Origin: Vectrevirus LI10P3
Sequence record: OZ035798.1
Reading direction: 5' to 3' (one strand)
Length of the DNA: 44,918 bases
The notes under the pieces are model-generated. The model was given only the letters and a program-made list of their open reading frames with translations, did no database searches and was not told the origin of the DNA. Below, piece by piece: positions 30 to 43,798 of the stretch. Position 1 is the first letter of the stretch, and every line of letters starts with the position of its first letter. The position numbers were made by a program, and so were the translations under genes.

Positions 30-329
30 GTGAGCGTACACAATAAACATGCAGCTACAGAGGACGAGGTTGGCATTCTGCATGGTGCTATTACCAAAAT
101 CTTCAATAAGAAAGCACAGGCAATACTGGACACTATAGAAGAAGACCCTGATGCAGCATTACATTTAGTGTCTGGTAAGGATATTGGTGCGATGTGTAAG
201 TGGGTTCTTGATAACGGCATTACCGCCACACCTGCTGCACAGCAGGAAGAGTCCCAGTTATCTAAGCGCCTCAAGGCTATCCGAGAGGCATCCAGTGGCA
301 AGATTATTCAGTTTACAAAAGAGGAGTGA
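30..329 (+). CDS. Terminase small subunit (gp18-like), GTG start
   Basis: 99 aa ORF directly after the holin and before the large terminase; GGAGGG RBS 6 nt upstream of GTG. Assignment is by position and size only. Confidence 0.5.
   Translation: MSVHNKHAATEDEVGILHGAITKIFNKKAQAILDTIEEDPDAALHLVSGKDIGAMCKWVLDNGITATPAAQQEESQLSKRLKAIREASSGKIIQFTKEE
121..143 (+). promoter_or_regulatory. Phage RNAP promoter-like site embedded in coding sequence
   Basis: caATACTGGACACTATAGAAGAAG matches the core of the repeated promoter consensus; upstream ATTTA is degenerate. Confidence 0.45.
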
Positions 330-330
330 T

Positions 331-774
331 ATGCATAGATGGTGTGAATCTCAAGGTTATACCATCTTACCTTCTGGTGTCATCCTTTCAAAGGGTGGCA
401 CCCCTCTCAAACCATTCAAGGCGGGTAGGGGTTATTTAGCAGTTAAAATTAAAAATAAAGAAGGTAAATGGCGTAATGTCTATGTTCATCAATTAGTGGC
501 TTATAAGTATTTACCTAAAACTAATAATGAAGTAAACCACAAAGACGGCGATAAGTACAACAATGATGTTAGCAACTTGGAGTGGGTAACAAGAAGCGAG
601 AATAACTATTTAAAATGCAATGGAAATGATAGGAGTGCCTTAAATAGCTATTTAGCAAGATTAAAAGATTGCTTCTTGCAAGGTAAGGGTGTAGCAGAAA
701 CCGCTAGACTTACTGGTAAAAGTGAACCAAGAGTTTCTTCTCTCTTTAAGGAGTGGCGAAATGGCAAAGGCTAG
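331..774 (+). CDS. HNH homing endonuclease
   Basis: ATG at 331 with GAGGAG RBS; motif VNHKDGDKYNNDVSNLEW; sits between the two terminase genes; paralogous to the ORF at 8285. Confidence 0.8.
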   Translation: MHRWCESQGYTILPSGVILSKGGTPLKPFKAGRGYLAVKIKNKEGKWRNVYVHQLVAYKYLPKTNNEVNHKDGDKYNNDVSNLEWVTRSENNYLKCNGNDRSALNSYLARLKDCFLQGKGVAETARLTGKSEPRVSSLFKEWRNGKG

Positions 775-2811: not shown

Positions 2812-3093
2812 ATGGCTAATGATTATAGTGATCAACCTTTAACTGGTCGATATGACCGTAAGCAGATTACACCGACCAGTGAGGCATTAATGCTCCCTGT
2901 TGTTACAGAGGAGTCTATTACGAAGAAAGCCAATGTTATCAATGATGCAACCAAATCTGGTAAACAGAAAGCAGCAATGGTATGTCGTCCTGTAGGTGGC
3001 ACTCTTGAGATTGCCATTGCTACTGGTAGCAAAGAGGATGCAGATTGGTTGTCTGTTAAAATGGACAGCGTTGGTCTTATTACACCGGCTTAA
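2812..3093 (+). CDS. Hypothetical protein, paralog A of a tandem pair
   Basis: 93 aa; shares SGKQKxAMV and IAIAxGS blocks with the next ORF. Confidence 0.6.
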   Translation: MANDYSDQPLTGRYDRKQITPTSEALMLPVVTEESITKKANVINDATKSGKQKAAMVCRPVGGTLEIAIATGSKEDADWLSVKMDSVGLITPA

Positions 3094-3110: not shown

Positions 3111-3398
3111 ATGTCTAAGTATGGCGATGCAGGTACGACTACTGGTCAGGTTTTTCGTGTAAAAGCAGTACAAACTATTGCAACTGCAATTCCTATGCCT
3201 ATCGTGGCAGAAGCTGACCTTAAAAAGAAAGATCATCCAATTAATATTGAACACCTATCTGGTAAGCAGAAAGGTGCTATGGTGGTTGTAGATAAAGGAG
3301 ATAGCCTTTATATTGCTATTGCGCGTGGCTCTGCACCAACTGACAAGTGGGATGCAACTACTATGGAGGTGACACCTGTCACTCCAGAAGGGGATTAA
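3111..3398 (+). CDS. Hypothetical protein, paralog B of a tandem pair
   Basis: 95 aa; AGGAG-like RBS; same conserved blocks as 2812..3093. Confidence 0.6.
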   Translation: MSKYGDAGTTTGQVFRVKAVQTIATAIPMPIVAEADLKKKDHPINIEHLSGKQKGAMVVVDKGDSLYIAIARGSAPTDKWDATTMEVTPVTPEGD

Positions 3399-3400
3399 TA

Positions 3401-3745
3401 ATGCTTAACAAATACTTCAAGCGTAAAGAGTTCGCTTGCCGTTGTGGGTGCGGTACATCCACTGTTGATGCTGAATTACTACAGGTAGTCACAGATGTGC
3501 GTGAGCACTTTGGTTCTCCTGTAGTTATCACTTCGGGGCATCGCTGTGCTAAGCACAATGCTAATGTAGGAGGGGCTAAGAACTCCATGCATCTTACTGG
3601 TAAGGCTGCTGACATTAAGGTACGAGGTATCTTACCTTCTGATGTACATAAGTATCTTACTGATAAGTACCAAGGCAAATATGGGATTGGTAAGTATAAC
3701 TCCTTTACTCATATTGATGTACGCGACGGGTGTGCACGATGGTAG
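3401..3745 (+). CDS. Endolysin, zinc peptidase M15 family (L-Ala-D-Glu peptidase-like)
   Basis: ATG 3401; SxHxxGxAxD motif (SMHLTGKAAD) plus downstream FTHIDVRD, as in VanY/M15 peptidases; lies in the lysis cassette. Confidence 0.75.
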   Translation: MLNKYFKRKEFACRCGCGTSTVDAELLQVVTDVREHFGSPVVITSGHRCAKHNANVGGAKNSMHLTGKAADIKVRGILPSDVHKYLTDKYQGKYGIGKYNSFTHIDVRDGCARW

Positions 3746-4003: not shown

Positions 4004-4217
4004 GTTTCTAGAAGTGCTGGCAGGTCTTATTGGCCTGCTTGTCTCTGCTAAGAAGAAACAAGAAGAGAAGGAGGCACAAAGTGAAGCGAATCATGTTAGT
4101 GACAATCCTGCTGATTGGTTCGCTGACCACTTCCGGGTGTCAGCAGGCGTTACCAGAGAAAGCAATGGTGAAACCTCTGAGGCCGACGCTGACGGAAGTT
4201 TACGAGGTAGACGATAA
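3996..4217 (+). CDS. Putative i-spanin (Rz-like), unusually short
   Basis: GTG start; N-terminal hydrophobic segment followed by charged KKKQEEKEAQ region; overlaps the lipoprotein ORF in another frame. Confidence 0.35.
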   Translation: MNKFLEVLAGLIGLLVSAKKKQEEKEAQSEANHVSDNPADWFADHFRVSAGVTRESNGETSEADADGSLRGRR

Positions 4218-4290
4218 GGTCTGCTTTAGTAAGCCTGACGCTACAAAATTAGGTTTGTATATTCTTTCGCTGGAACGCGGATATAATTAA
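4093..4290 (+). CDS. Putative o-spanin lipoprotein (Rz1-like)
   Basis: Signal-like N-terminus ending in lipobox-like LTTSGC, then Pro-rich segment; starts inside 3996..4217 and runs past its stop. Confidence 0.45.
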   Translation: MLVTILLIGSLTTSGCQQALPEKAMVKPLRPTLTEVYEVDDKVCFSKPDATKLGLYILSLERGYN

Positions 4291-8284: not shown

Positions 8285-8659
8285 ATGGAAACGTGGGTAA
8301 CTGTCCCTGGCTACCCACGGTATCAAGTGTCTACTCATGGATGTGTCAAATCACTCATTGGTAATCACAAGATACTGAAGCCGGGCAAGTCAAAGAGTGG
8401 GTATTTGAACGTAGTTCTTAGTAATGAGGAAGGCAAGAAGACATTCCGTGTGCATCGCTTGGTTGCACTGTGTCATTTGCCTAATCCTCATAATCTTCCC
8501 TTAGTGAACCACAAGGATGAAGACAAGGCACATAATCATGTAGACAATTTAGAGTGGTGTACTGAAGAGTACAATCTCAAGTATTCACGTGACTACGATA
8601 GGTCTTCTCTTAGTGTAACCCAAGGACAGAAGAAGGTATGGCTTCCAGTAGACCTGTAA
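8285..8659 (+). CDS. HNH homing endonuclease (NUMOD4-like N-terminus)
   Basis: AAGGAG RBS; WVTVPGYPRYQVSTHGCV then VNHKDEDKAHNHVDNLEW; paralog of 331..774. Confidence 0.8.
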   Translation: METWVTVPGYPRYQVSTHGCVKSLIGNHKILKPGKSKSGYLNVVLSNEEGKKTFRVHRLVALCHLPNPHNLPLVNHKDEDKAHNHVDNLEWCTEEYNLKYSRDYDRSSLSVTQGQKKVWLPVDL

Positions 8660-34440: not shown

Positions 34441-36842
34441 TGGAAGTACAAGGTTCATTAGGTAGACAAATCCAAGGCATTAGCCAGCAGCCGCCAGCGG
34501 TACGCTTGGATGGTCAGTGCACAGCCATGATTAATATGATACCTGATGTAGTGAATGGTACTCAATCACGCATGGGTACAACTCATATTGCAAAGATACT
34601 TGATGCGGGGACTGATGACATGGCTACTCATCATTATCGCAGAGGTGATGGTGATGAAGAGTATTTCTTCACGTTGAAGAAAGGACAAGTTCCTGAGATA
34701 TTTGATAAGTATGGGCGCAAATGTAATGTGACTTCACAAGATACACCTATGGCTTACTTGGCTGAGGTGATAAACCCAAGAGAAGATGTACAATTCATGA
34801 CGATAGCTGATGTTACTTTCATGCTTAATCGTAGGAAAGTAGTTAAAGCTAGTAACAGGAAGTCACCTAAAGTTGGAAACAAAGCCATTGTGTTTTGTGC
34901 GTATGGTCAATATGGTACATCTTATTCCATTGTAATTAATGGGACCAACGCTGCTAGTTTTAAAACACCGGATGGTGGAAGTGCAGACCATGTTGAACAA
35001 ATTCGAACTGAACGTATCACTTCTGAATTGTACTCTAAGTTGCAGCAATGGAGCGGTGTGAGTGACTATGAAATACAAAGAGACGGTACTAGTATATTTA
35101 TCGAGAGACGGGATGGTGCTAGCTTTACAATAACAACCACCGATGGTGCAAAAGGTAAGGACTTAGTGGCTATCAAGAATAAAGTTAGCTCTACTGACCT
35201 ACTCCCTTCTCGTGCTCCTGCTGGTTATAAAGTACAAGTGTGGCCCACTGGCAGCAAACCTGAGTCTCGTTACTGGCTGCAAGCTGAGCCTAAAGAGGGA
35301 AACCTTGTGTCTTGGAAAGAAACAATAGCTGCCGATGTATTACTTGGGTTTGATAAAGGCACAATGCCTTATATCATTGAACGTACAGGTATCGTAGACG
35401 GCATAGCTCAATTCAAGATAAGACAAGGCGATTGGGAAGATCGTAAAGTAGGAGATGACCTGACTAACCCTATGCCTTCTTTTATTGATGAAGAAGTACC
35501 TCAGACAATAGGTGGGATGTTCATGGTGCAGAACCGCCTATGCTTTACAGCAGGTGAAGCTGTTATTGCTTCTCGTACATCATACTTCTTCGATTTCTTT
35601 CGTTATACGGTTATCTCTGCATTGGCAACTGACCCATTTGATATTTTCTCAGATGCTAGTGAAGTCTACCAGCTAAAACATGCAGTGACCTTAGATGGCG
35701 CTACCGTGTTGTTCTCTGATAAGTCACAATTCATACTGCCAGGAGATAAGCCTTTAGAGAAGTCAAATGCATTGCTTAAGCCTGTTACAACATTTGAAGT
35801 GAACAATAAAGTGAAGCCAGTAGTAACTGGTGAATCGGTAATGTTTGCCACTAATGATGGTTCTTACTCTGGTGTACGAGAGTTCTATACAGACTCTTAT
35901 AGTGACACTAAGAAGGCACAAGCAATCACAAGTCATGTGAATAAACTCATCGAAGGTAACATTACCAACATGGCAGCAAGCACCAATGTCAACAGGTTAC
36001 TTGTCACTACCGATAAGTATCGTAACATAGTCTACTGCTACGATTGGTTATGGCAAGGAACAGACCGTGTACAATCAGCATGGCATGTATGGAAGTGGCC
36101 TATAGGTACAAAGGTGCGAGGTATGTTTTATTCTGGCGAATTACTTTACCTGCTCCTTGAGAGAGGCAATGGTGTCTATCTGGAGAAGATGGATATGGGT
36201 GATGCATTAACCTATGGTTTAAATGATCGCATCCGAATGGATAGACAGGCAGAGTTAATCTTCCAGCATTTCAAAGCAGAAGATGAATGGGTATCTGAAC
36301 CGCTACCTTGGGTTCCTACTAACCCAGAACTTTTAGATTGCATCTTAATCGAGGGTTGGGATTCATATATTGGTGGTTCTTTCCTATTCAAATACAACCC
36401 CGGTGATAACACCTTGTCTACAACCTTTGATATGCATGATGATAGCCACGTAAAAGCGAAGGTTATTGTTGGTCAGATTTACCCTCAAGAGTTTGAACCA
36501 ACACCTGTAGTTATCAGAGATAGGCAAGACCGTGTATCCTATATTGATGTACCTGTTGTGGGACTAGTTCACCTTAATCTTGATATGTATCCTGATTTCT
36601 CCGTGGAGGTTAAGAATGTGAAGAGTGGTAAAGTACGCAGGGTGCTAGCGTCAAACCGTATAGGTGGTGCTCTCAACAATACAGTAGGTTATGTTGAACC
36701 AAGAGAAGGTGTCTTCAGATTCCCACTGAGAGCTAAGAGTACGGATGCTGTTTATCGTATTATTGTAGAATCACCTCACACATTCCAGCTTCGTGATATT
36801 GAGTGGGAAGGGAGCTACAATCCAACCAAAAGGAGGGTCTAA
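34440..36842 (+). CDS. Tail tubular protein B (gp12-like)
   Basis: TAATG coupling; N-terminal GISQQP motif as in recalled T7 gp12; 800 aa. Confidence 0.85.
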   Translation: MEVQGSLGRQIQGISQQPPAVRLDGQCTAMINMIPDVVNGTQSRMGTTHIAKILDAGTDDMATHHYRRGDGDEEYFFTLKKGQVPEIFDKYGRKCNVTSQDTPMAYLAEVINPREDVQFMTIADVTFMLNRRKVVKASNRKSPKVGNKAIVFCAYGQYGTSYSIVINGTNAASFKTPDGGSADHVEQIRTERITSELYSKLQQWSGVSDYEIQRDGTSIFIERRDGASFTITTTDGAKGKDLVAIKNKVSSTDLLPSRAPAGYKVQVWPTGSKPESRYWLQAEPKEGNLVSWKETIAADVLLGFDKGTMPYIIERTGIVDGIAQFKIRQGDWEDRKVGDDLTNPMPSFIDEEVPQTIGGMFMVQNRLCFTAGEAVIASRTSYFFDFFRYTVISALATDPFDIFSDASEVYQLKHAVTLDGATVLFSDKSQFILPGDKPLEKSNALLKPVTTFEVNNKVKPVVTGESVMFATNDGSYSGVREFYTDSYSDTKKAQAITSHVNKLIEGNITNMAASTNVNRLLVTTDKYRNIVYCYDWLWQGTDRVQSAWHVWKWPIGTKVRGMFYSGELLYLLLERGNGVYLEKMDMGDALTYGLNDRIRMDRQAELIFQHFKAEDEWVSEPLPWVPTNPELLDCILIEGWDSYIGGSFLFKYNPGDNTLSTTFDMHDDSHVKAKVIVGQIYPQEFEPTPVVIRDRQDRVSYIDVPVVGLVHLNLDMYPDFSVEVKNVKSGKVRRVLASNRIGGALNNTVGYVEPREGVFRFPLRAKSTDAVYRIIVESPHTFQLRDIEWEGSYNPTKRRV

Positions 36843-37588
36843 TGGCTATAGGTTCAGCCGTTATGGCTGGTATGTCTTCTATTGGTAGTATGTTTGCAGG
36901 TAGCGGTGCAGCCGCCGCTGCTGGTGGTACTGCCGCAGCCGCAGGAGGGACAGCCGCCGCAGGTGGCGGAGGTTTGCTTGGCTCCCTTGGTAGTTTCTTA
37001 GGAGGTTCTTCTGCTGGCTTCTCTAATGCAGGACTGCTTAGTGCAGGTATGCAAGGTCTTGGTCTTCTAGGCAATCTTTTTGGTGGAAGTGATGAAGCCA
37101 AAGCTATGAAGAAAGCTCAGGAGGAGCAATGGCGGCAGCAGTTAATTGCTACACAAGAAGCATATAAGACAGTGGCAGATGCAGAACGCTCTGCTGCTAA
37201 ACAGTATCATGCGGATGCAATAAGCAATCAGGCTTCACTGCTACAGCAAAGAGCGCAGGTTGCACTACTTGCAGGTGCAACTGGCACTGGTGGTAACTCT
37301 GTATCTTCTATGCTGAATGACTTAGCAGCAGAGGGCGGGAGGAACCAGAGTACAATTATTGATAACTATGAGAATCAGAAGATTAACTTCACCAATCAGC
37401 TTAAGTCTATCCAGCGAGGTGGACAGATGCAGATGCGTGAGTTTAAGAAGCCTTCTGCCGTGAGCACCTTGGTGCAAGGTATACCGAGTCTGGCATCTGC
37501 CTATGTAACAGGTAGTAAGTCCGGCATGGCTTTAGGTAAAGCTTTAACTGATTCTCGTACATATTCATCTGGAACAAGAGGTATTTAA
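36842..37588 (+). CDS. Internal virion protein (Gly/Ala-rich)
   Basis: GGAGGG RBS; poly-Ala/Gly low-complexity N-terminal half; translationally coupled on both sides. Confidence 0.7.
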   Translation: MAIGSAVMAGMSSIGSMFAGSGAAAAAGGTAAAAGGTAAAGGGGLLGSLGSFLGGSSAGFSNAGLLSAGMQGLGLLGNLFGGSDEAKAMKKAQEEQWRQQLIATQEAYKTVADAERSAAKQYHADAISNQASLLQQRAQVALLAGATGTGGNSVSSMLNDLAAEGGRNQSTIIDNYENQKINFTNQLKSIQRGGQMQMREFKKPSAVSTLVQGIPSLASAYVTGSKSGMALGKALTDSRTYSSGTRGI

Positions 37589-40536
37589 TGGCAATTGAGC
37601 GACAAGCAGTACAAGGTCTGCCACAAGTGCAGGCCACTTCTCCTAATGTCATGACCTTTGCACCTCAGCGAGTTGGAGGTGTGGAGGCTGGCGTAGCTTC
37701 TACCTCCGGTAGTCGATTTATCGAAGACCTTATTCGAGCAGCCAGTAGTGTAGCTGATGTAACCACTGGTATCCTTAATCAAAAGATTGAGGAAGATAAG
37801 GTTGTTCAAATGGAACGGGCATATAACGGATTAATGCCTTCTGAGGATGCAACTCGTGGTGGCGCTCGTGCTAACATGCTTGTCAAAGCTCAACTGCTAG
37901 CTAATGATGAAGCAGCACGAATGAAAGACATGGCTACTCGTTTCCAAGGAACGGATGACGAGTGGACACAACTTATGGTTGACTCTCGTAATGAGATGCA
38001 GAATAAGCTGTTCCAGCAATACCCTGAGTTGCAAGGTGACAAAGATACTATGCGTATGGTCACTAATGTCTTCCAAGAACAGCAGCCTCAGATTTGGGCT
38101 ACACGAACCCAGCATAAACTTGACCGTGAACAAGCAGACCGTGAGGATACCTTTGACGGTCGAGTGGCTTCTACTTGGGATTCTAATATTGACCCTGAAG
38201 CCTCTGGCTATGCTTTACAGGAACGAATCCGCGAAGGTCTTACTCAAGGATTACTACCTGAACAGATGCACAAGAAGTTAGTCCAGCGAGCAATTTCACT
38301 TGCACAAGGCGGTGATGTTAGCATGGCTGAAGCCCTGAAGTATGTGAAGGACGATAAGGGTGTTTCTGTTTATGCTAAGAATCCACAGCTTATCACAGCC
38401 ATCACTAGTGGTAATGCAGTTTGGGCTAGGAATAATGTAGCTGATGTAACTCGTATGTCTTTCGAAGTTAAAGAATCCTACCTTGCAGGTGATTTAACTG
38501 ATGAAGAATTGTTGGAACGAGCACAGCACATTAATAATCTGACAGGTAACTCTGTCTTCTCTAATCCAGAGCTAGAGGCACTGATGCGCCAACGGGCTAA
38601 GCAGAATGCAGAGCTAGGTGCAATGCAGGATATGCGACGTGAGCTTTACTCCGACCGCCTGACTGGCTTCCAAGGTAAGACTGATAAAGAGAAGAAGGCT
38701 TACATTGATGTTATCAAACAGGATAGCCAACTTTATGCAGACCAGCAAATCAAACAACGTGGCTTGGACCCTTACAGTCAAGAGGCTGAAGCTATTCGTG
38801 GTGCAGTGGAAGTGCAGCGCCTGCAATTCATGAACTCCAAAGGCTTAGTGGATGATACCTTTGAGTCTCGTATCAAAGCCATGGAATCTATGCTATCGCC
38901 TGAGCACTTTGCCAAGGGCGAACCACAGGAGTTGATGACTATTCGCCAGTTGTGGGAACAGTTGCCAGAAGAGAGCCGAGGTGTCTTTGGTGACACGGTG
39001 AATGGCTACATGGATAACTACAACACTGCACTACAAATGGGAGAGACACCTTTGCAGGCTGCAAGGTTTGCGCGTGAAGCACAGCAGAAATTCTCTCGTA
39101 CTGAGAAGGAAACCAAGAAGTTCAACTCAGCTATTGGAGATGCACTGGATGAGGTATCTGGTGCTGGCTGGTTTGATGGTAAAACCGAAGTGTCAGACTT
39201 AGGTAAAGCTATTGCGGAAGAAGAGTTACGAGCTAAGGCCAATATGTTGTGGTCTAGTGGTATGCGTAACATGGATTCTATCAAGAAGGCTTTAATTACT
39301 TGGGGCAATAAACGCTACACTCAAACAGAGGATGCAAAGACTTCCGGTGGCTATTTCATTAAAGGTGATTACACTTCTGCATCTGATATGCTTATGTCAG
39401 TTGGGAAAGGCGTAAACCCTACCGATGTACCTCTGGCGCTTGGTAGGTATGTAGAAACACAGATGCCAGAATTGAAGAAGGAGCTTCAAGAGTGGGAAAC
39501 TAAAGATGATATATACATTGATTACAATGAACAGAAAGGAACTTTTGTGATTCGTGCTGGTGCAGCAGGTCGCCCTCTTTCTGGAGTAATCCCTGTAACC
39601 TCTTTAGATACTACTTCACTACTAGATTCTGCCTATCAGAAGAAAGTAGAGGAACGAGATAAAGGCGAGTATGTCCACCCGTATCGTACAGATATTGGTG
39701 CACAAGAGCCTATGCCAGCTAAACCAACTGCCAAAGATATTGGTAAATTTGGACTAGCTAACTTCCTCATGTCTTCTGCTTTTGCTTCTGGTGAGAATCT
39801 GCCTTCTAACTTCGAGATTAACTATCGAGGTAATATGCAACAATTCTATGACAAGCTAGCTATGGATGAGAATAAAGATAAAGTTGGCTTTAATAAGGCA
39901 ACTGGAACCTTTACTCCATATAAAGACGCTCGCGGTGAGTCTATCGGTTACGGTCATTTCTTAACGGAAGAAGAGAAGCGAAACGGGTATATTAAGATTG
40001 GTGATGAACTAGTTCCCTATCGAGGGTCTATGTCTCAGCTTACAGAGAGCAAGGCTCGCGCTCTTATGGAGCAAGATGCTAAGAAGCATGTGCCTCCTAC
40101 TCGTGACTGGAAGATTCCGTTTGACCAGATGCATCCTGCACAGCAACGTGGCTTGATGGATTTAACCTACAATTTAGGTAAAGGTGGAATCCAGAACTCA
40201 CCGCGTGCTTTTGCTGCATTCAAAGCTGGTAAGCTTACGGAAGGCTTTATCGAAATGCTGGGCACTGCATCAAGTGAAGGTAAGCGTATTCCTGGCCTAC
40301 TGAAGCGACGCGCTGAGGCATACAATATGGCATCTGCTGGTGGTGTGCCTAAGATTACCGAAGTGGAGACTCGTGAAGATGGCTCCATGTGGGTTAGGTT
40401 TGGTGGACCTATGCCAGCAGGTTCTGTCTCGGCATGGACTCATAAACGTATTGGCGCGGATGGTTGGTATCAGGTTTATGAGGCTGCACCTACCAAGTTA
40501 GCTAAAGGTTCTAAGGTAGGTAAATTTAAGTTGTAG
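37588..40536 (+). CDS. Internal virion (ejection) protein with C-terminal lysozyme-like domain
   Basis: 982 aa; region ~aa 780-930 (YKDARGESIGYGHFLTEEEK...GLMDLTYNLGKGG...KRRAEAYNM) resembles a T4-lysozyme-type (GH24) fold. Confidence 0.75.
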   Translation: MAIERQAVQGLPQVQATSPNVMTFAPQRVGGVEAGVASTSGSRFIEDLIRAASSVADVTTGILNQKIEEDKVVQMERAYNGLMPSEDATRGGARANMLVKAQLLANDEAARMKDMATRFQGTDDEWTQLMVDSRNEMQNKLFQQYPELQGDKDTMRMVTNVFQEQQPQIWATRTQHKLDREQADREDTFDGRVASTWDSNIDPEASGYALQERIREGLTQGLLPEQMHKKLVQRAISLAQGGDVSMAEALKYVKDDKGVSVYAKNPQLITAITSGNAVWARNNVADVTRMSFEVKESYLAGDLTDEELLERAQHINNLTGNSVFSNPELEALMRQRAKQNAELGAMQDMRRELYSDRLTGFQGKTDKEKKAYIDVIKQDSQLYADQQIKQRGLDPYSQEAEAIRGAVEVQRLQFMNSKGLVDDTFESRIKAMESMLSPEHFAKGEPQELMTIRQLWEQLPEESRGVFGDTVNGYMDNYNTALQMGETPLQAARFAREAQQKFSRTEKETKKFNSAIGDALDEVSGAGWFDGKTEVSDLGKAIAEEELRAKANMLWSSGMRNMDSIKKALITWGNKRYTQTEDAKTSGGYFIKGDYTSASDMLMSVGKGVNPTDVPLALGRYVETQMPELKKELQEWETKDDIYIDYNEQKGTFVIRAGAAGRPLSGVIPVTSLDTTSLLDSAYQKKVEERDKGEYVHPYRTDIGAQEPMPAKPTAKDIGKFGLANFLMSSAFASGENLPSNFEINYRGNMQQFYDKLAMDENKDKVGFNKATGTFTPYKDARGESIGYGHFLTEEEKRNGYIKIGDELVPYRGSMSQLTESKARALMEQDAKKHVPPTRDWKIPFDQMHPAQQRGLMDLTYNLGKGGIQNSPRAFAAFKAGKLTEGFIEMLGTASSEGKRIPGLLKRRAEAYNMASAGGVPKITEVETREDGSMWVRFGGPMPAGSVSAWTHKRIGADGWYQVYEAAPTKLAKGSKVGKFKL

Positions 40537-40600: not shown

Positions 40601-43600
40601 ATGGAACAAGACATTAAGACTAATTGGGCTGGATATGTCCAGTCTACTCCTGAGCCGTTTTCTATTGAGGCGGCTCCGGTATCGGCTCCTACGATACGCC
40701 AGCGTAATGAGTTACAAGAGCAAGTTCTTGAAGCTAAAGCTGATGCTGATATCTTAGGTGCTGTAGGTGCTGCCTTCCAGAATGAGTGGTTGGCATTCGG
40801 AGGCAAGCGGTGGTATGACCGTGCCACTGCTGATTTCACACCTCAACCAGACTTCGAGATACAACCTGAGCAACGTGAAGCACTACGTTTCAAATATGGT
40901 ACAGATATGATGCAGACAATCACTGAGGGTGTTCGTTCTGAGGATGAATTGAACTTCCGTATTCAGAATGCTGATGAAGACCTTGAGCGCAATAAGCGCA
41001 TTACTCAGGCTGGCTGGGTTGGCTCTGTGGCGACGATTGGCGCTGCTGTGCTTGACCCAGTGGGTTGGGTTGCCTCTATCCCAACTGGCGGTGCAGCCAA
41101 AGTCGGCCTCGTAGGTCGTGCCGTGCGTGGCGCTATCGCCGCTGGCGTGAGCAATGCCGCTATTGAATCCGTATTGGTCCAAAGTGACATGACTCGTGAT
41201 TTAGATGACATTATGGTAGCACTAGGTTCCGGTATGGCTATGGGTGGCGTTATTGGCGCTGTAGCGCGTGGTAGGGCCACTAAGCTCAGTGAGCAAGGGG
41301 ATGACAGGGCTGCGAGCATTGTGCGCAGTGCAGACGCAGGGGACCGCTATGTGCGTGCTGTTGCTGATGACAGTATCGGTGCGATGCGTGTTAAGGGCGA
41401 AGAGGTACTCACTGAGGGCGCATTTGATATATCTAGTAAAGGCGAAGACTTGCTGAAAACATTGCAGAGGGAGGGGAACTCTATTGATATGACCCCTCGC
41501 CGCTGGGCCGGAACCATGTCTGCCCTTGGGACTGTCGTGCACTCCTCTCATGATGCTAGTGTTCGTGGCCTCGGTGCTCGCCTGTTTGAGTCTCCGCAAG
41601 GTTTAGGTATGCAAAAGGCATCTGCCAGTCTTATGCAGAATACCAACTTGAATCGACTGAAGTCTGCTGATATGAACCGTTTCAATGACGGGTTTGACTT
41701 ATGGCTCAAAGAAAATAATATCAATCCAGTTGCAGGCCATACTAACTCTCACTATGTGCAGCAATATAATGAGAAGGTATGGGAAGCTGTACGCATCGGT
41801 ATGGATGAGTCTACGCCTAAGTCTATCCGTATGGCAGCAGAGGGGCAGCAAGCTATGTACCGAGAAGCCTTAGCTTTAAGGAAGCGCTCCGGTGAAGCTG
41901 GCTTTGAAAACATTAAAGCAGATAATAAGTATATGCCTGATATCTTTGACACTATGAAAGCTCGCCGTCAATTTGATAGGATAGGAAAGGATATAGATAA
42001 AGAAGATATCATTGAGTTATTCTCTCGTGCTTATCAGAACGGCGCTCGTAAAATTCCAAAAGAAGTAGCGGATGAAATTGCACGAGCACAAGTAAACCGT
42101 GTTGTGGATGCCACTCTGACAGGACGTATGAGTTTCGAAAAGGCTATGTCTGGTCAGACTAAAGCCGAGTATGAAGCAATAATGCGCAAGGCAGGCTTCA
42201 GTGATGAAGAAATTGAAAAGATGGTAGAAGCTCTGGATAACAAAGAAACCAGAGATAACATCTCTAACCGAGCTAAAATGAGTTTAGGATTAGATGTTAC
42301 TCAAGAATACAATGGTATTCGTATGCGTGACTTCATGAATACCAACGTGGAAGAGCTAACAGATAACTATATGAAGGAGGCAGCAGGTGGCGCTGCATTG
42401 GCCCGTCAAGGATTCTCTACCTATCAGGCTGCACTTAATGCAATTGACCTTGTAGAGCGAAATGCACGAAACGCGGCTAAGGATAGCAAGGCTAGCTTAG
42501 CACTAGATGAAGAGATTCGTCAAATGCGAGAAGGGCTTCGCTTGATTATGGGTAAATCTATCGATGTAGACCCACAGGCTTTGTCTACTAAAATGCTGCG
42601 ACGTGGTCGTGACATTACAGGTGTACTTCGCTTAGGTCAGATGGGCTTCGCACAGCTAGGTGAACTTGCTAACTTCATGGGTGAGTTTGGTATTGCTGCA
42701 ACCACTATAGCTTTAGGTAAGCAATTCCGCTTTACATCTAAGGCTTTGCGGAGCGGTGATGGCTTCTTTCGAGATAAGAACTTGGCAGAAGTAGAGAGAA
42801 TGGTAGGTTACATTGGTGAGGATAACTGGCTAACAACCAAGGGTGCACGTCCAGATGAGTTTGGTGATGTAACCACAGTAAAAGGGATGATGGCTCACTT
42901 TGACCAATCCATGAACTCAATACGTCGTGCTCAGACCAACCTATCACTTTTCCGCATGGCACAGGGTTCTCTGGAGCGAATGACCAATAGGCAAATAGCT
43001 TTGTCTTTCATTGACCACCTTGAAGGCAAGAAGATTATTCCTCAGAAGAAACTGGAGGAACTTGGTCTTACTCAGGAGTTCATGACTAATCTACAGAAGC
43101 ACTATGATGCTAACTCTAAAGGTTCTGGCTTGCTTGGCTTTGATACAATGCCTTATGCCATGGGTGAAACTTTAGCTAATGCTATTCGTCGTAAGTCAGG
43201 TCTAATTATCCAACGTAACTTCATTGGTGATGAAGGTATCTGGATGAACAAAGCACTAGGTAAGACATTTGCACAGCTTAAGTCATTCTCTCTTGTATCT
43301 GGTGAGAAGCAATTTGGTCGAGGGATTCGCCACGATAAAATTGGTCTTGCTAAGAAGACAGCTTACGGGTTTGCTTTGGGTTCAATAGTATATGCGGCAA
43401 AAGCCTATGTGAACTCTATTGGGCGAGAAGACCAAGATGAATATTTGGAAGAGAAGTTATCTCCTAAAGGGTTGGCCTTTGGTGCAATGGGTATGATGAG
43501 TACAACTGCTGTATTTAGTCTAGGTGGAGATTTCTTAGGTGGCCTAGGTGTTCTACCTTCTGAGTTAGTACAATCCCGTTATGAGGCTGGCTTTCAGACT

Positions 43601-43798
43601 AAGGGTTTGATAGACCAAATACCACTAGTAGGTGTTGGTCAAGATGCATATCGTTTAGCAGATTCTATAACTAAATATGCAGAGGGTGATACAGAAGGTG
43701 TAGATGTGGCACGTAGGGCTTTACGCTTAGTGCCTCTAACTAATGTAATAGGAATCCAGAACGCATTGCGTTATGGCTTAGATGAACTGGAGGATTGA
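40601..43798 (+). CDS. Large internal virion / core protein
   Basis: 1065 aa; GGAGGA RBS; position after the other internal proteins. Confidence 0.75.
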   Translation: MEQDIKTNWAGYVQSTPEPFSIEAAPVSAPTIRQRNELQEQVLEAKADADILGAVGAAFQNEWLAFGGKRWYDRATADFTPQPDFEIQPEQREALRFKYGTDMMQTITEGVRSEDELNFRIQNADEDLERNKRITQAGWVGSVATIGAAVLDPVGWVASIPTGGAAKVGLVGRAVRGAIAAGVSNAAIESVLVQSDMTRDLDDIMVALGSGMAMGGVIGAVARGRATKLSEQGDDRAASIVRSADAGDRYVRAVADDSIGAMRVKGEEVLTEGAFDISSKGEDLLKTLQREGNSIDMTPRRWAGTMSALGTVVHSSHDASVRGLGARLFESPQGLGMQKASASLMQNTNLNRLKSADMNRFNDGFDLWLKENNINPVAGHTNSHYVQQYNEKVWEAVRIGMDESTPKSIRMAAEGQQAMYREALALRKRSGEAGFENIKADNKYMPDIFDTMKARRQFDRIGKDIDKEDIIELFSRAYQNGARKIPKEVADEIARAQVNRVVDATLTGRMSFEKAMSGQTKAEYEAIMRKAGFSDEEIEKMVEALDNKETRDNISNRAKMSLGLDVTQEYNGIRMRDFMNTNVEELTDNYMKEAAGGAALARQGFSTYQAALNAIDLVERNARNAAKDSKASLALDEEIRQMREGLRLIMGKSIDVDPQALSTKMLRRGRDITGVLRLGQMGFAQLGELANFMGEFGIAATTIALGKQFRFTSKALRSGDGFFRDKNLAEVERMVGYIGEDNWLTTKGARPDEFGDVTTVKGMMAHFDQSMNSIRRAQTNLSLFRMAQGSLERMTNRQIALSFIDHLEGKKIIPQKKLEELGLTQEFMTNLQKHYDANSKGSGLLGFDTMPYAMGETLANAIRRKSGLIIQRNFIGDEGIWMNKALGKTFAQLKSFSLVSGEKQFGRGIRHDKIGLAKKTAYGFALGSIVYAAKAYVNSIGREDQDEYLEEKLSPKGLAFGAMGMMSTTAVFSLGGDFLGGLGVLPSELVQSRYEAGFQTKGLIDQIPLVGVGQDAYRLADSITKYAEGDTEGVDVARRALRLVPLTNVIGIQNALRYGLDELED

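Follow-up and report, generated by a model that had tools for sequence, protein, structure and literature searches.

A GH24 lysozyme domain on the gp15-position ejection protein of a K1-5-like Vectrevirus and a separate M15 endolysin

A muralytic ejection protein is known from phage T7, namely gp16. Its N-terminal domain, a lytic transglycosylase of the SLT type, helps the ejection channel to cross the sacculus and is of importance chiefly on hosts with a highly cross-linked wall, as stated in PMC8954989 (citing Moak & Molineux 2000) and PMC6116005. A virion-borne GH24 domain for entry is likewise found in the tail lysozyme gp5 of T4. For the SP6/K1-5-like group, to which the phage discussed here belongs, the current standard view assigns entry and exit to two separate enzymes. 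The 109-kDa protein of K1-5 (there called Gp38; YP_654136.1) and gp36 of SP6 are entered as virion-associated lysozymes in a section of PMC5380687, with reference to Moak & Molineux 2004, and the virion-associated lysin of both phages is also cited in PMC8954989. The latter review further cites Leiman et al. 2007 for the packaging of gp35-type proteins into the capsid and their ejection at infection, to which cryo-EM of the analogous PhiM1 and Ar-KM proteins can be added. In RefSeq, the gp35 proteins of the K1-5/SP6 type are named "lysozyme domain-containing protein".

The arrangement extends beyond this group. In PhiM1 and in the phiKMV-like phage Ar-KM, cryo-EM has located the corresponding lysozyme domain on the gp15-like protein of the core, which is an octamer. 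A C-terminal lysozyme on the gp15-like protein is present in 31 of the 127 Autographivirales that have a muralytic domain in their ejectosome, and a lysozyme at the C-terminus of the ejection protein in gp15 position is a recognised configuration in Autographivirales.

The window, i.e., the complete stretch of 44,918 nucleotides from Vectrevirus LI10P3 (OZ035798.1), represents a K1-5/K1E-like, SP6-related podophage. Its internal virion protein gp35 is the same protein, in the same gene order, as gp35 of K1-5, gp35 of K1E and gp36 of SP6. The identity to K1-5 gp35 (YP_654136.1) is 99% across all 982 residues; on the DNA level, the identity to Escherichia phage VEc3 is 99.6%. The two proteins are separated by 10 substitutions (e.g., R782 for H, T860 for S and F875 for L), which leave E761, D780 and S785 untouched. 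SP6 gp36 (NP_853596.1) is 42% identical overall, and phrog_4290, "lysozyme domain-containing protein", matches gp35 from end to end. A Pfam search with residues 1-740 yielded no match, even at E ≤ 10. Since this part of the protein thus displays no homology to T7 gp15 that Pfam could detect, the label "gp15-like" is derived from the gene position and the literature (PMC8954989). An open reading frame on the reverse strand (40167..40388), within the interval first flagged, was dismissed as a mechanical one in a strongly conserved coding region. The features considered are compiled in Table 1.

Table 1. Location of the virion-protein and lysis features within the window
Feature	Position (nt)	Strand	Basis
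Endolysin, 114-aa Peptidase_M15_3 zinc peptidase	3401..3745	+	Pfam PF08291, E = 5.1e-33
Holin, small membrane protein, 49 aa	3854..4003	+	ORF/translation; orthologous position in K1-5 annotated holin
Rz-like spanin ORF	4030..4290	+	ORF/translation; orthologous position in K1-5 annotated Rz-like spanin
gp34, T7 gp14-like ejection protein, directly upstream of gp35	36842..37588	+	Pfam PF24072 (T7_gp14), E = 1.1e-32
gp35, internal virion (ejection) protein in T7 gp15 position, lysozyme-bearing	37588..40536	+	ORF list, 982 aa
GH24/T4-lysozyme-like muramidase domain of gp35, aa ~746-918	39823..40341	+	PF00959, AF2 model, Foldseek, conservation in SP6
Glu761, candidate general acid (equivalent of T4L Glu11), outside the interval first flagged	39868..39870	+	Invariance; end of helix 1
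Asp780 to Ser785 (YKDARGES), equivalents of T4L Asp20/Thr26	39925..39942	+	phmmer alignment to T4 lysozyme
Alpha/beta module of gp35, 62 aa (aa 921-982), after the lysozyme domain	40348..40533	+	AF2 model, pLDDT 92
gp36, T7 gp16-like ejection protein	40601..43798	+	phrog_342 match

The genes around gp35 fit the ejection-protein model. The order is nozzle (PF25675), gp14-like (PF24072), gp35, gp16-like (phrog_342) and tail-fibre adaptor (PF03906), which places gp35 downstream of the nozzle gene and between the gp14-like and the gp16-like genes; the stop codon of the nozzle gene and the start codon of gp34 overlap. The gp16-like protein, gp36, is 39% identical to SP6 gp37. The family it matches is named "internal virion protein with endolysin domain", which suggested a second muralytic domain in the virion. 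This candidate was rejected: gp36 aligns to phrog_342 only from profile position 162 on, and a Pfam search revealed neither an SLT nor a lysozyme match in it. Judged from its sequence, gp36 has no counterpart of the transglycosylase domain found at the N-terminus of T7 gp16.

That the 982-residue internal virion protein carries a T4-lysozyme-like domain had been proposed in a first-pass annotation from three motifs, and all of them are present in the reading frame, viz. GESIGYGHFLT (aa 783, nt 39934-39966), DLTYNLGKGG (aa 858, nt 40159-40188) and KRRAEAYNM (aa 906, nt 40303-40329). An HMM search, suggested as the check, assigned PF00959 (Phage_lysozyme) to aa 776-910 of gp35 with E = 4.8e-10 and a score of 40.3 bits, the gathering score being 22.3; the 151 residues flagged gave E = 8.4e-10 when searched alone. 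A resemblance of this strength greatly exceeds what chance would produce. The lysozyme identity is also assigned by PHROG 4290/7. A profile built from 27 homologues retrieved GH24 lysozymes from the PDB at E = 6e-11, among them the T4 gp5 tail lysozyme. The interval proposed for the domain (aa 781-931) omits helix 1 (aa 746-762), Glu761 and Asp780. The domain lies near the end of gp35, but not at its C-terminus proper, which is made up of another small module (aa 921-982).

An AF2 model of aa 741-982, calculated from an alignment that excluded the rows of SP6, phiKMV and T4L, reached a pLDDT of 95.5 and a pTM of 0.89. According to this model, the domain of gp35 (aa ~746-918) has the two-lobed alpha+beta fold of T4 lysozyme. 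Foldseek compared the model with the PDB and returned a probability of 1.00 for T4 lysozyme and for the R21, PHAb10/11, EC340 and DLP12 lysozymes. Each of the best 50 PDB matches was either a lysozyme of the T4L type or a T4L fusion protein. With few exceptions their probabilities were 0.99-1.00, and the alignments cover essentially the complete targets of 162-165 residues. The TM-score on target was 0.56-0.63 for T4 lysozyme (gpe) and T4 gp5. T4 lysozyme and the gp35 domain have the equivalents of Asp20/Thr26 and the GxGH and YN.G motifs in common, yet their identity is about 18%; gp35 contains an insertion of 10 residues and a Ser for Thr26. Unlike T4 lysozyme, the gp35 domain is fused behind an ejection-protein body of 745 residues and is followed by an extra module. 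A solved homologue of the ejection protein, such as PhiM1 gp49, was not found in the PDB by phmmer and profile searches, which retrieved free lysozymes only.

Within the family, the domain is the better conserved part. The lysozyme stretch is 64% identical to that of SP6, in contrast to 27-32% for aa 101-700, which means that its conservation between the K1-5-like phages and SP6 is about twice that of the protein body. The domain was found in 153 genomes of SP6-like phages, mostly under the annotation "lysozyme domain". An exhaustive representative search with aa 741-982 yielded 293 homologous matches, a word-indexed search only 4.

The phiKMV-type proteins (phiKMV gp36/Ar-KM gp42 and PhiM1 gp49) are built like gp35. 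They have a helical body of ~720-740 residues followed by a T4-lysozyme-like domain, and their genes are also located between gp14-like and gp16-like genes. By analogy, the common role would be the cutting of peptidoglycan around the periplasmic tunnel. phiKMV gp36 shares the core YKD..G.S.G.GH (as YKDADGYS) with gp35, but the similarity is confined to this core of 15 residues (BLASTP, E = 0.004). It also differs from gp35 by the canonical E-8aa-D spacing, where gp35 has a hairpin insertion of 10 residues, and by the lack of the 62-residue terminal module.

As to catalysis, Glu761 is likely the general acid, and Asp780 and Ser785 likely complete the triad, as far as sequence comparison and model can tell. 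The column of Glu761 contains Glu in all of the 82 homologues that cover it. The residue belongs to a conserved "EN" motif and, in the AF2 model, is located where helix 1 ends on its C-terminal side. Sequence alignments fail to link it to Glu11 of T4L: MAFFT puts the two residues into separate columns and lets the T4L "EG" fall on a conserved "xG[FY]", and the hhalign alignments with T4L (probability 95.7%) and with phiKMV gp36C (probability 12.6%) both start at the GxGH strand, short of helix 1. The proposed equivalence of Glu761 and Glu11 is therefore based on invariance and helix position. As to Asp780 (nt 39925-39927), phmmer aligns YKD with Y18-K19-D20 of T4 lysozyme and S785 with T26. 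The latter exchange, Thr to Ser, is conservative, and the same Ser occurs in phiKMV gp36.

The canonical GH24 spacing is E-8aa-D/C-5aa-T (PMC4640515). It is absent from gp35, which reads E761-18aa-D780-4aa-S785; the extra residues between Glu761 and Asp780 make up a short hairpin, which this clade of ejection proteins has conserved. This spacing is a variant within the GH24 family and no ground for exclusion from it. It nevertheless invites the question of whether the same fold performs another chemistry, i.e., whether the domain is a lytic transglycosylase that yields 1,6-anhydroMurNAc instead of a hydrolytic muramidase. The R protein of lambda, with a related fold, and T7 gp16, with another one, are the cases to be compared. 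Changes at Thr26 of T4L can switch the product outcome, and the column of Asp780 is mostly Ser in distant homologues (64 Ser versus 30 Asp). The Asp of the YKD motif is, however, present in both gp35 and SP6, where it aligns with D20 of T4L, and hydrolytic GH24 enzymes rank highest in both the structural and the profile comparison. Moreover, phiKMV gp36 shares the D-4aa-S arrangement and is tabled as a "Lysozyme" among the virion-associated lysins, albeit without the mark for experimental activity (PMC5380687). We consider a transglycosylase very unlikely and stay with a hydrolytic muramidase.

A catalytically dead domain could still serve as a structural module that shapes the core stack or a DNA-spooling groove, or as a mere binder of peptidoglycan. 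The invariance of Glu761 and the strong conservation of the GxGH, YN.G and RR motifs among the gp35 homologues argue against it. So does the muralytic activity of a gp35-type protein in virions, which is cited in passages of the reviews PMC5380687 and PMC8954989. Also, among the ejection proteins gp34, gp35 and gp36, no muralytic domain was found besides that of gp35. A dead domain thus appears extremely unlikely, and an active muramidase remains the preferred reading.

As to the terminal module, the last 67 residues of gp35 had no match in a Pfam search, and Foldseek against the PDB yielded no significant fold match for the module (best E = 3.6). Homologues of the SP6 type have conserved it, but it is missing from phiKMV gp36 and many homologues of ~900 residues. 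One may speculate that SP6-like ejection proteins possess lysozyme domains of a distinct sub-class of GH24. It would be defined by the conserved 10-residue hairpin that separates the catalytic Glu from the first canonical strand (the "EN....G[FY]" motif) and, for the SP6/K1-5 branch, by the C-terminal module of 62 residues without recognisable fold relatives, which could be a new domain for anchoring to peptidoglycan or for docking to the ejectosome. We regard this as rather unlikely. If true, the terminal module would fix the periplasmic tunnel in the sacculus.

At the other end of the infection cycle, the first-pass annotation had named an M15 peptidase unrelated to the lysozyme domain as the dedicated endolysin, and the profile matches bear this out. 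In addition to Pfam, phrog_894 ("endolysin") recognises the product with E = 4e-45. The zinc-binding signature of M15 peptidases consists of SxHxxGxAxD and a distal His; the protein contains SMHLTGKAAD, with the motif intact, and THID. In K1-5 the orthologous gene is annotated as endolysin, and the annotations of the genes after it are holin and Rz-like spanin. In a Pfam search the holin and spanin ORFs of the window themselves gave no match. With a GH24 domain in gp35 and an unrelated M15 endolysin, the phage therefore encodes two distinct peptidoglycan-degrading enzymes, as had been claimed.

The division of labour between them can be disputed. The gp35 domain might be used twice and also be the enzyme, or the major one, for lysis at the end of infection, which would leave the M15 peptidase with an accessory or some other role. 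An older view, found in a passage of PMC2680503, indeed held that a single muralytic gene of SP6 serves both functions, and an excerpt from Heineman et al. describes the muralytic domain of T7 gp16 as having evolved to compensate for the loss of lysozyme. The M15 protein, in turn, was named an endolysin "without biochemical evidence" (PMC4837284). Yet the view of one gene with two functions is older than the recognition of the M15 gene, whose product has the profile matches and the intact zinc motif described above and which is located just upstream of the holin and spanin genes. Also, gp35 is a 109-kDa structural protein in which no export signal was identified. Dual use is, in consequence, highly improbable.

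Very probably, then, gp35 is an ejection protein with a GH24 muramidase for entry, which does the job of the T7 gp16 domain, and the M15 peptidase together with holin and spanin is responsible for lysis. The analysis itself establishes what the domain is and how it folds, its conserved residues, the order of the genes and the identity of the M15 protein. The presence of gp35 in the virion and its muralytic activity are adopted from the literature; what we infer is when the enzymes act, which bond is cleaved and that entry and exit are strictly separated. By analogy with T7, PhiM1 and the phiKMV-like phages, gp34, gp35 and gp36 would be the three ejection proteins that are packed as a core stack in the capsid, leave through the tail at infection and re-form a channel across the envelope. 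In the periplasm, the lysozyme domain of gp35 would cleave the MurNAc-GlcNAc backbone of the sacculus locally, which would allow the tunnel to reach the inner membrane. At the end of the cycle, the separate M15 zinc peptidase would cut the peptide stems and, with holin and spanin, cause lysis of the host. In T7 the wall is cut by the N-terminal transglycosylase of gp16, a domain that gp36 here appears to lack, so that the same function would reside on a different subunit, and there in a C-terminal GH24 domain on the protein in gp15 position.

The lysozyme domain of gp35 is real, ordinary and already known from the RefSeq annotation and from reviews of virion-associated lysins. As a discovery it carries little weight; it fits the recognised pattern that podophage lineages differ in the ejectosome subunit that bears the muralytic module. 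phiKMV gp36C has already served as a source of a virion-derived muramidase. In practical terms, gp35 may be another source of such an enzyme, and possibly of a robust one.

The window is the complete genome of an SP6-related podophage similar to K1-5 and K1E; compared with the K1-5 record, it is circularly permuted and begins at the small terminase gene. The 2,949-nt ORF of its internal virion protein gp35 is 99.6% identical in DNA to that of Escherichia phage VEc3 and at least 98.8% identical to those of K1E and K1-5. It is matched by 64 records, all Vectrevirus-type coliphages. Ten substitutions in 982 residues separate gp35 from its K1-5 counterpart (YP_654136.1), which RefSeq labels 'lysozyme domain-containing protein'; the identity with SP6 gp36 is 42%. 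Elsewhere, the small and large terminase genes, which directly adjoin each other in K1-5, are separated by an ORF for an HNH_3 homing endonuclease (E = 4.4e-11); this insert occurs in just 17 phage records, as against the 64 matching gp35. Downstream of the tailspike genes, a NUMOD4 motif (E = 1e-9) together with a weak HNH_3 match marks another putative homing endonuclease.

The first-pass annotation had read a lysozyme-like pattern into the C-terminus of gp35. Its ORF length of 982 aa and its three quoted motifs are correct, all in frame. The similarity is real and far above chance, since Pfam, PHROGs, phmmer and a homologue profile all detect it. The phage lysozyme profile PF00959 matches aa 776-910 with E = 4.8e-10 and 40.3 bits, above the gathering score of 22.3, and the 151 residues originally flagged yield E = 8.4e-10 by themselves. 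The whole protein matches phrog_4290, 'lysozyme domain-containing protein'. Against PDB sequences, phmmer finds a weak match to T4 lysozyme (E = 0.0017), with Y778-K-D780 opposite Y18-K19-D20 and S785 opposite T26. A profile from 27 homologues matches T4-lysozyme-type (GH24) enzymes with E down to 6e-11, among them the T4 gp5 tail lysozyme and a fungal GH24 muramidase. By tblastn, the domain is present at a coverage of at least 80% in 153 phage genomes (hosts Escherichia, Salmonella, Klebsiella, Proteus, Erwinia, Pectobacterium and others), where it is mostly annotated as a lysozyme-domain protein. The finding is accurate and already known.

The fold agrees. An AlphaFold2 model of aa 741-982 reached pLDDT 95.5 and pTM 0.89, and its best 50 Foldseek matches in the PDB are all T4-lysozyme-type enzymes (R21, T4 lysozyme, PHAb10/11, EC340, DLP12) or T4 lysozyme fusion proteins, nearly all with a probability of 0.99-1.00 and with alignments spanning almost the whole targets of 162-165 residues. 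The top viral match, a 953-aa 'Lysozyme' of the SP6-like Erwinia phage S2, aligns over all 242 residues with a TM-score of 0.93. In the model the domain extends from helix 1 (aa 746-762) through about aa 918. The interval flagged at first, aa 781-931, was therefore slightly misplaced: the domain is there, but helix 1 and Asp780 were left out. K1-5-like gp35 and the SP6 protein share 64% identity in the lysozyme domain, as against just 27-32% in aa 101-700. The linker that precedes the domain, starting GLANFLMSSAFASGENLPSNFEINY, equals the enzyme domain in this respect (64%).

A Glu-Asn pair closes helix 1, and its Glu761 is invariant: all 82 homologues aligned at that column have Glu there. 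In T4 lysozyme, helix A likewise has Glu11 at its C-terminal end. Eighteen residues, versus the canonical 8, separate Glu761 from the YKD strand; the surplus is a short hairpin kept across the clade (motif 'EN....G[FY]'), to which this non-canonical Glu-Asp spacing is common. In phiKMV gp36, unlike gp35, the E-8aa-D spacing is canonical, yet the D-4aa-S arrangement is shared. Glu761 is a well-motivated candidate for the catalytic Glu, not a proven one, because sequence alignments do not bring it onto Glu11. A catalytically dead structural domain is a minor rival; so is transglycosylase chemistry instead of hydrolysis.

The lysozyme domain is followed by an independent alpha/beta module of 62 residues, predicted with pLDDT 92. 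It has no match in Pfam and no significant one in a Foldseek comparison with PDB folds. SP6-like ejection proteins conserve the module, as do some proteins of 336-436 aa; phiKMV gp36 and many homologues of about 900 aa are without it.

Features of the window discussed in the text
Feature	Position (nt)	Strand	Location	Match
HNH_3 homing-endonuclease ORF	184-774	+		HNH_3
93-aa ORF	2812-3093	+		
95-aa ORF	3111-3398	+		
Endolysin, 114 aa	3401-3745			Peptidase_M15_3, E = 5.1e-33
Second putative homing endonuclease	8285-8659	+		NUMOD4
Nozzle gene			upstream of gp35	PF25675
gp34, T7 gp14-like	36842-37588	+	upstream of gp35	PF24072, E = 1e-32
gp35	37588-40536	+		
Linker	39688-39822		gp35 aa 701-745	
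Terminal module	40348-40533		gp35 aa 921-982	
gp36, T7 gp16-like	40601-43798	+	downstream of gp35	PHROG, from profile position 162 onward only

With a gp14-like gene upstream and a gp16-like gene downstream, gp35 is the ejection protein in the gp15 position, although Pfam detects no homology between its aa 1-740 and T7 gp15. The N-terminal part of T7 gp16 is a lytic transglycosylase; the gp16-like protein here is without that part, and no muralytic Pfam domain was found in it. Among the three ejection proteins, the sole muralytic domain found is that of gp35. The PHROG of the gp16-like protein is named 'internal virion protein with endolysin domain', which would mislead here, because the match begins at position 162 and a muralytic Pfam match is lacking. 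SP6 gp37 exceeds the gp16-like protein by about 200 aa and has an insertion after about aa 236. The Ala/Gly-rich N-terminal tract of the gp14-like protein is 8 residues longer than that of K1-5; the extra GGTAAAA-type repeat suggests repeat-length variation.

The claim that the dedicated endolysin is an unrelated M15 peptidase also held. Apart from its Pfam match, the protein matches phrog_894 'endolysin' and has an intact zinc motif (SMHLTGKAAD...THID). Directly after its gene come a small membrane protein and an Rz-like ORF, whose K1-5 orthologues are annotated as holin and spanin. Two adjacent ORFs (93 and 95 aa) seem to be paralogous and have SGKQK.AMV...IAIA.GS in common; the label 'acetyl-CoA acetyltransferase' of their K1-5 and SP6 orthologues looks doubtful, since neither ORF has a Pfam match. 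The main historical rival, by which the virion lysozyme doubles as the lysis enzyme, was held in PMC2680503, and the M15 enzyme is without published biochemistry (PMC4837284). That view, however, was formed before the M15 gene had been recognised, and it is now improbable.

Domain identity, fold, conserved residues and gene order of gp35 are our own observations; its virion location and muralytic activity are taken from the literature. In PhiM1, cryo-EM showed that the octameric ejection protein bears a lysozyme-like domain (PMC11440229), and a 2026 preprint reports the same for a phiKMV-like phage. In this preprint, the ejectosome muralytic domains of Autographivirales, 127 in all, are sorted into three classes by placement; 31 of them lie at the C-terminus of the gp15-like protein. 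Entry by the ejected GH24 domain of gp35 and lysis by M15 peptidase, holin and spanin is the best explanation, and a highly probable one. Packed in the capsid core, gp35 would be ejected at infection, and its GH24 domain would then break down glycan strands locally and thereby allow the channel across the envelope to form. The timing, the identity of the cleaved bond and a strict division of labour between entry and exit are presumed; when the cycle ends, the M15 peptidase, holin and spanin would lyse the cell.
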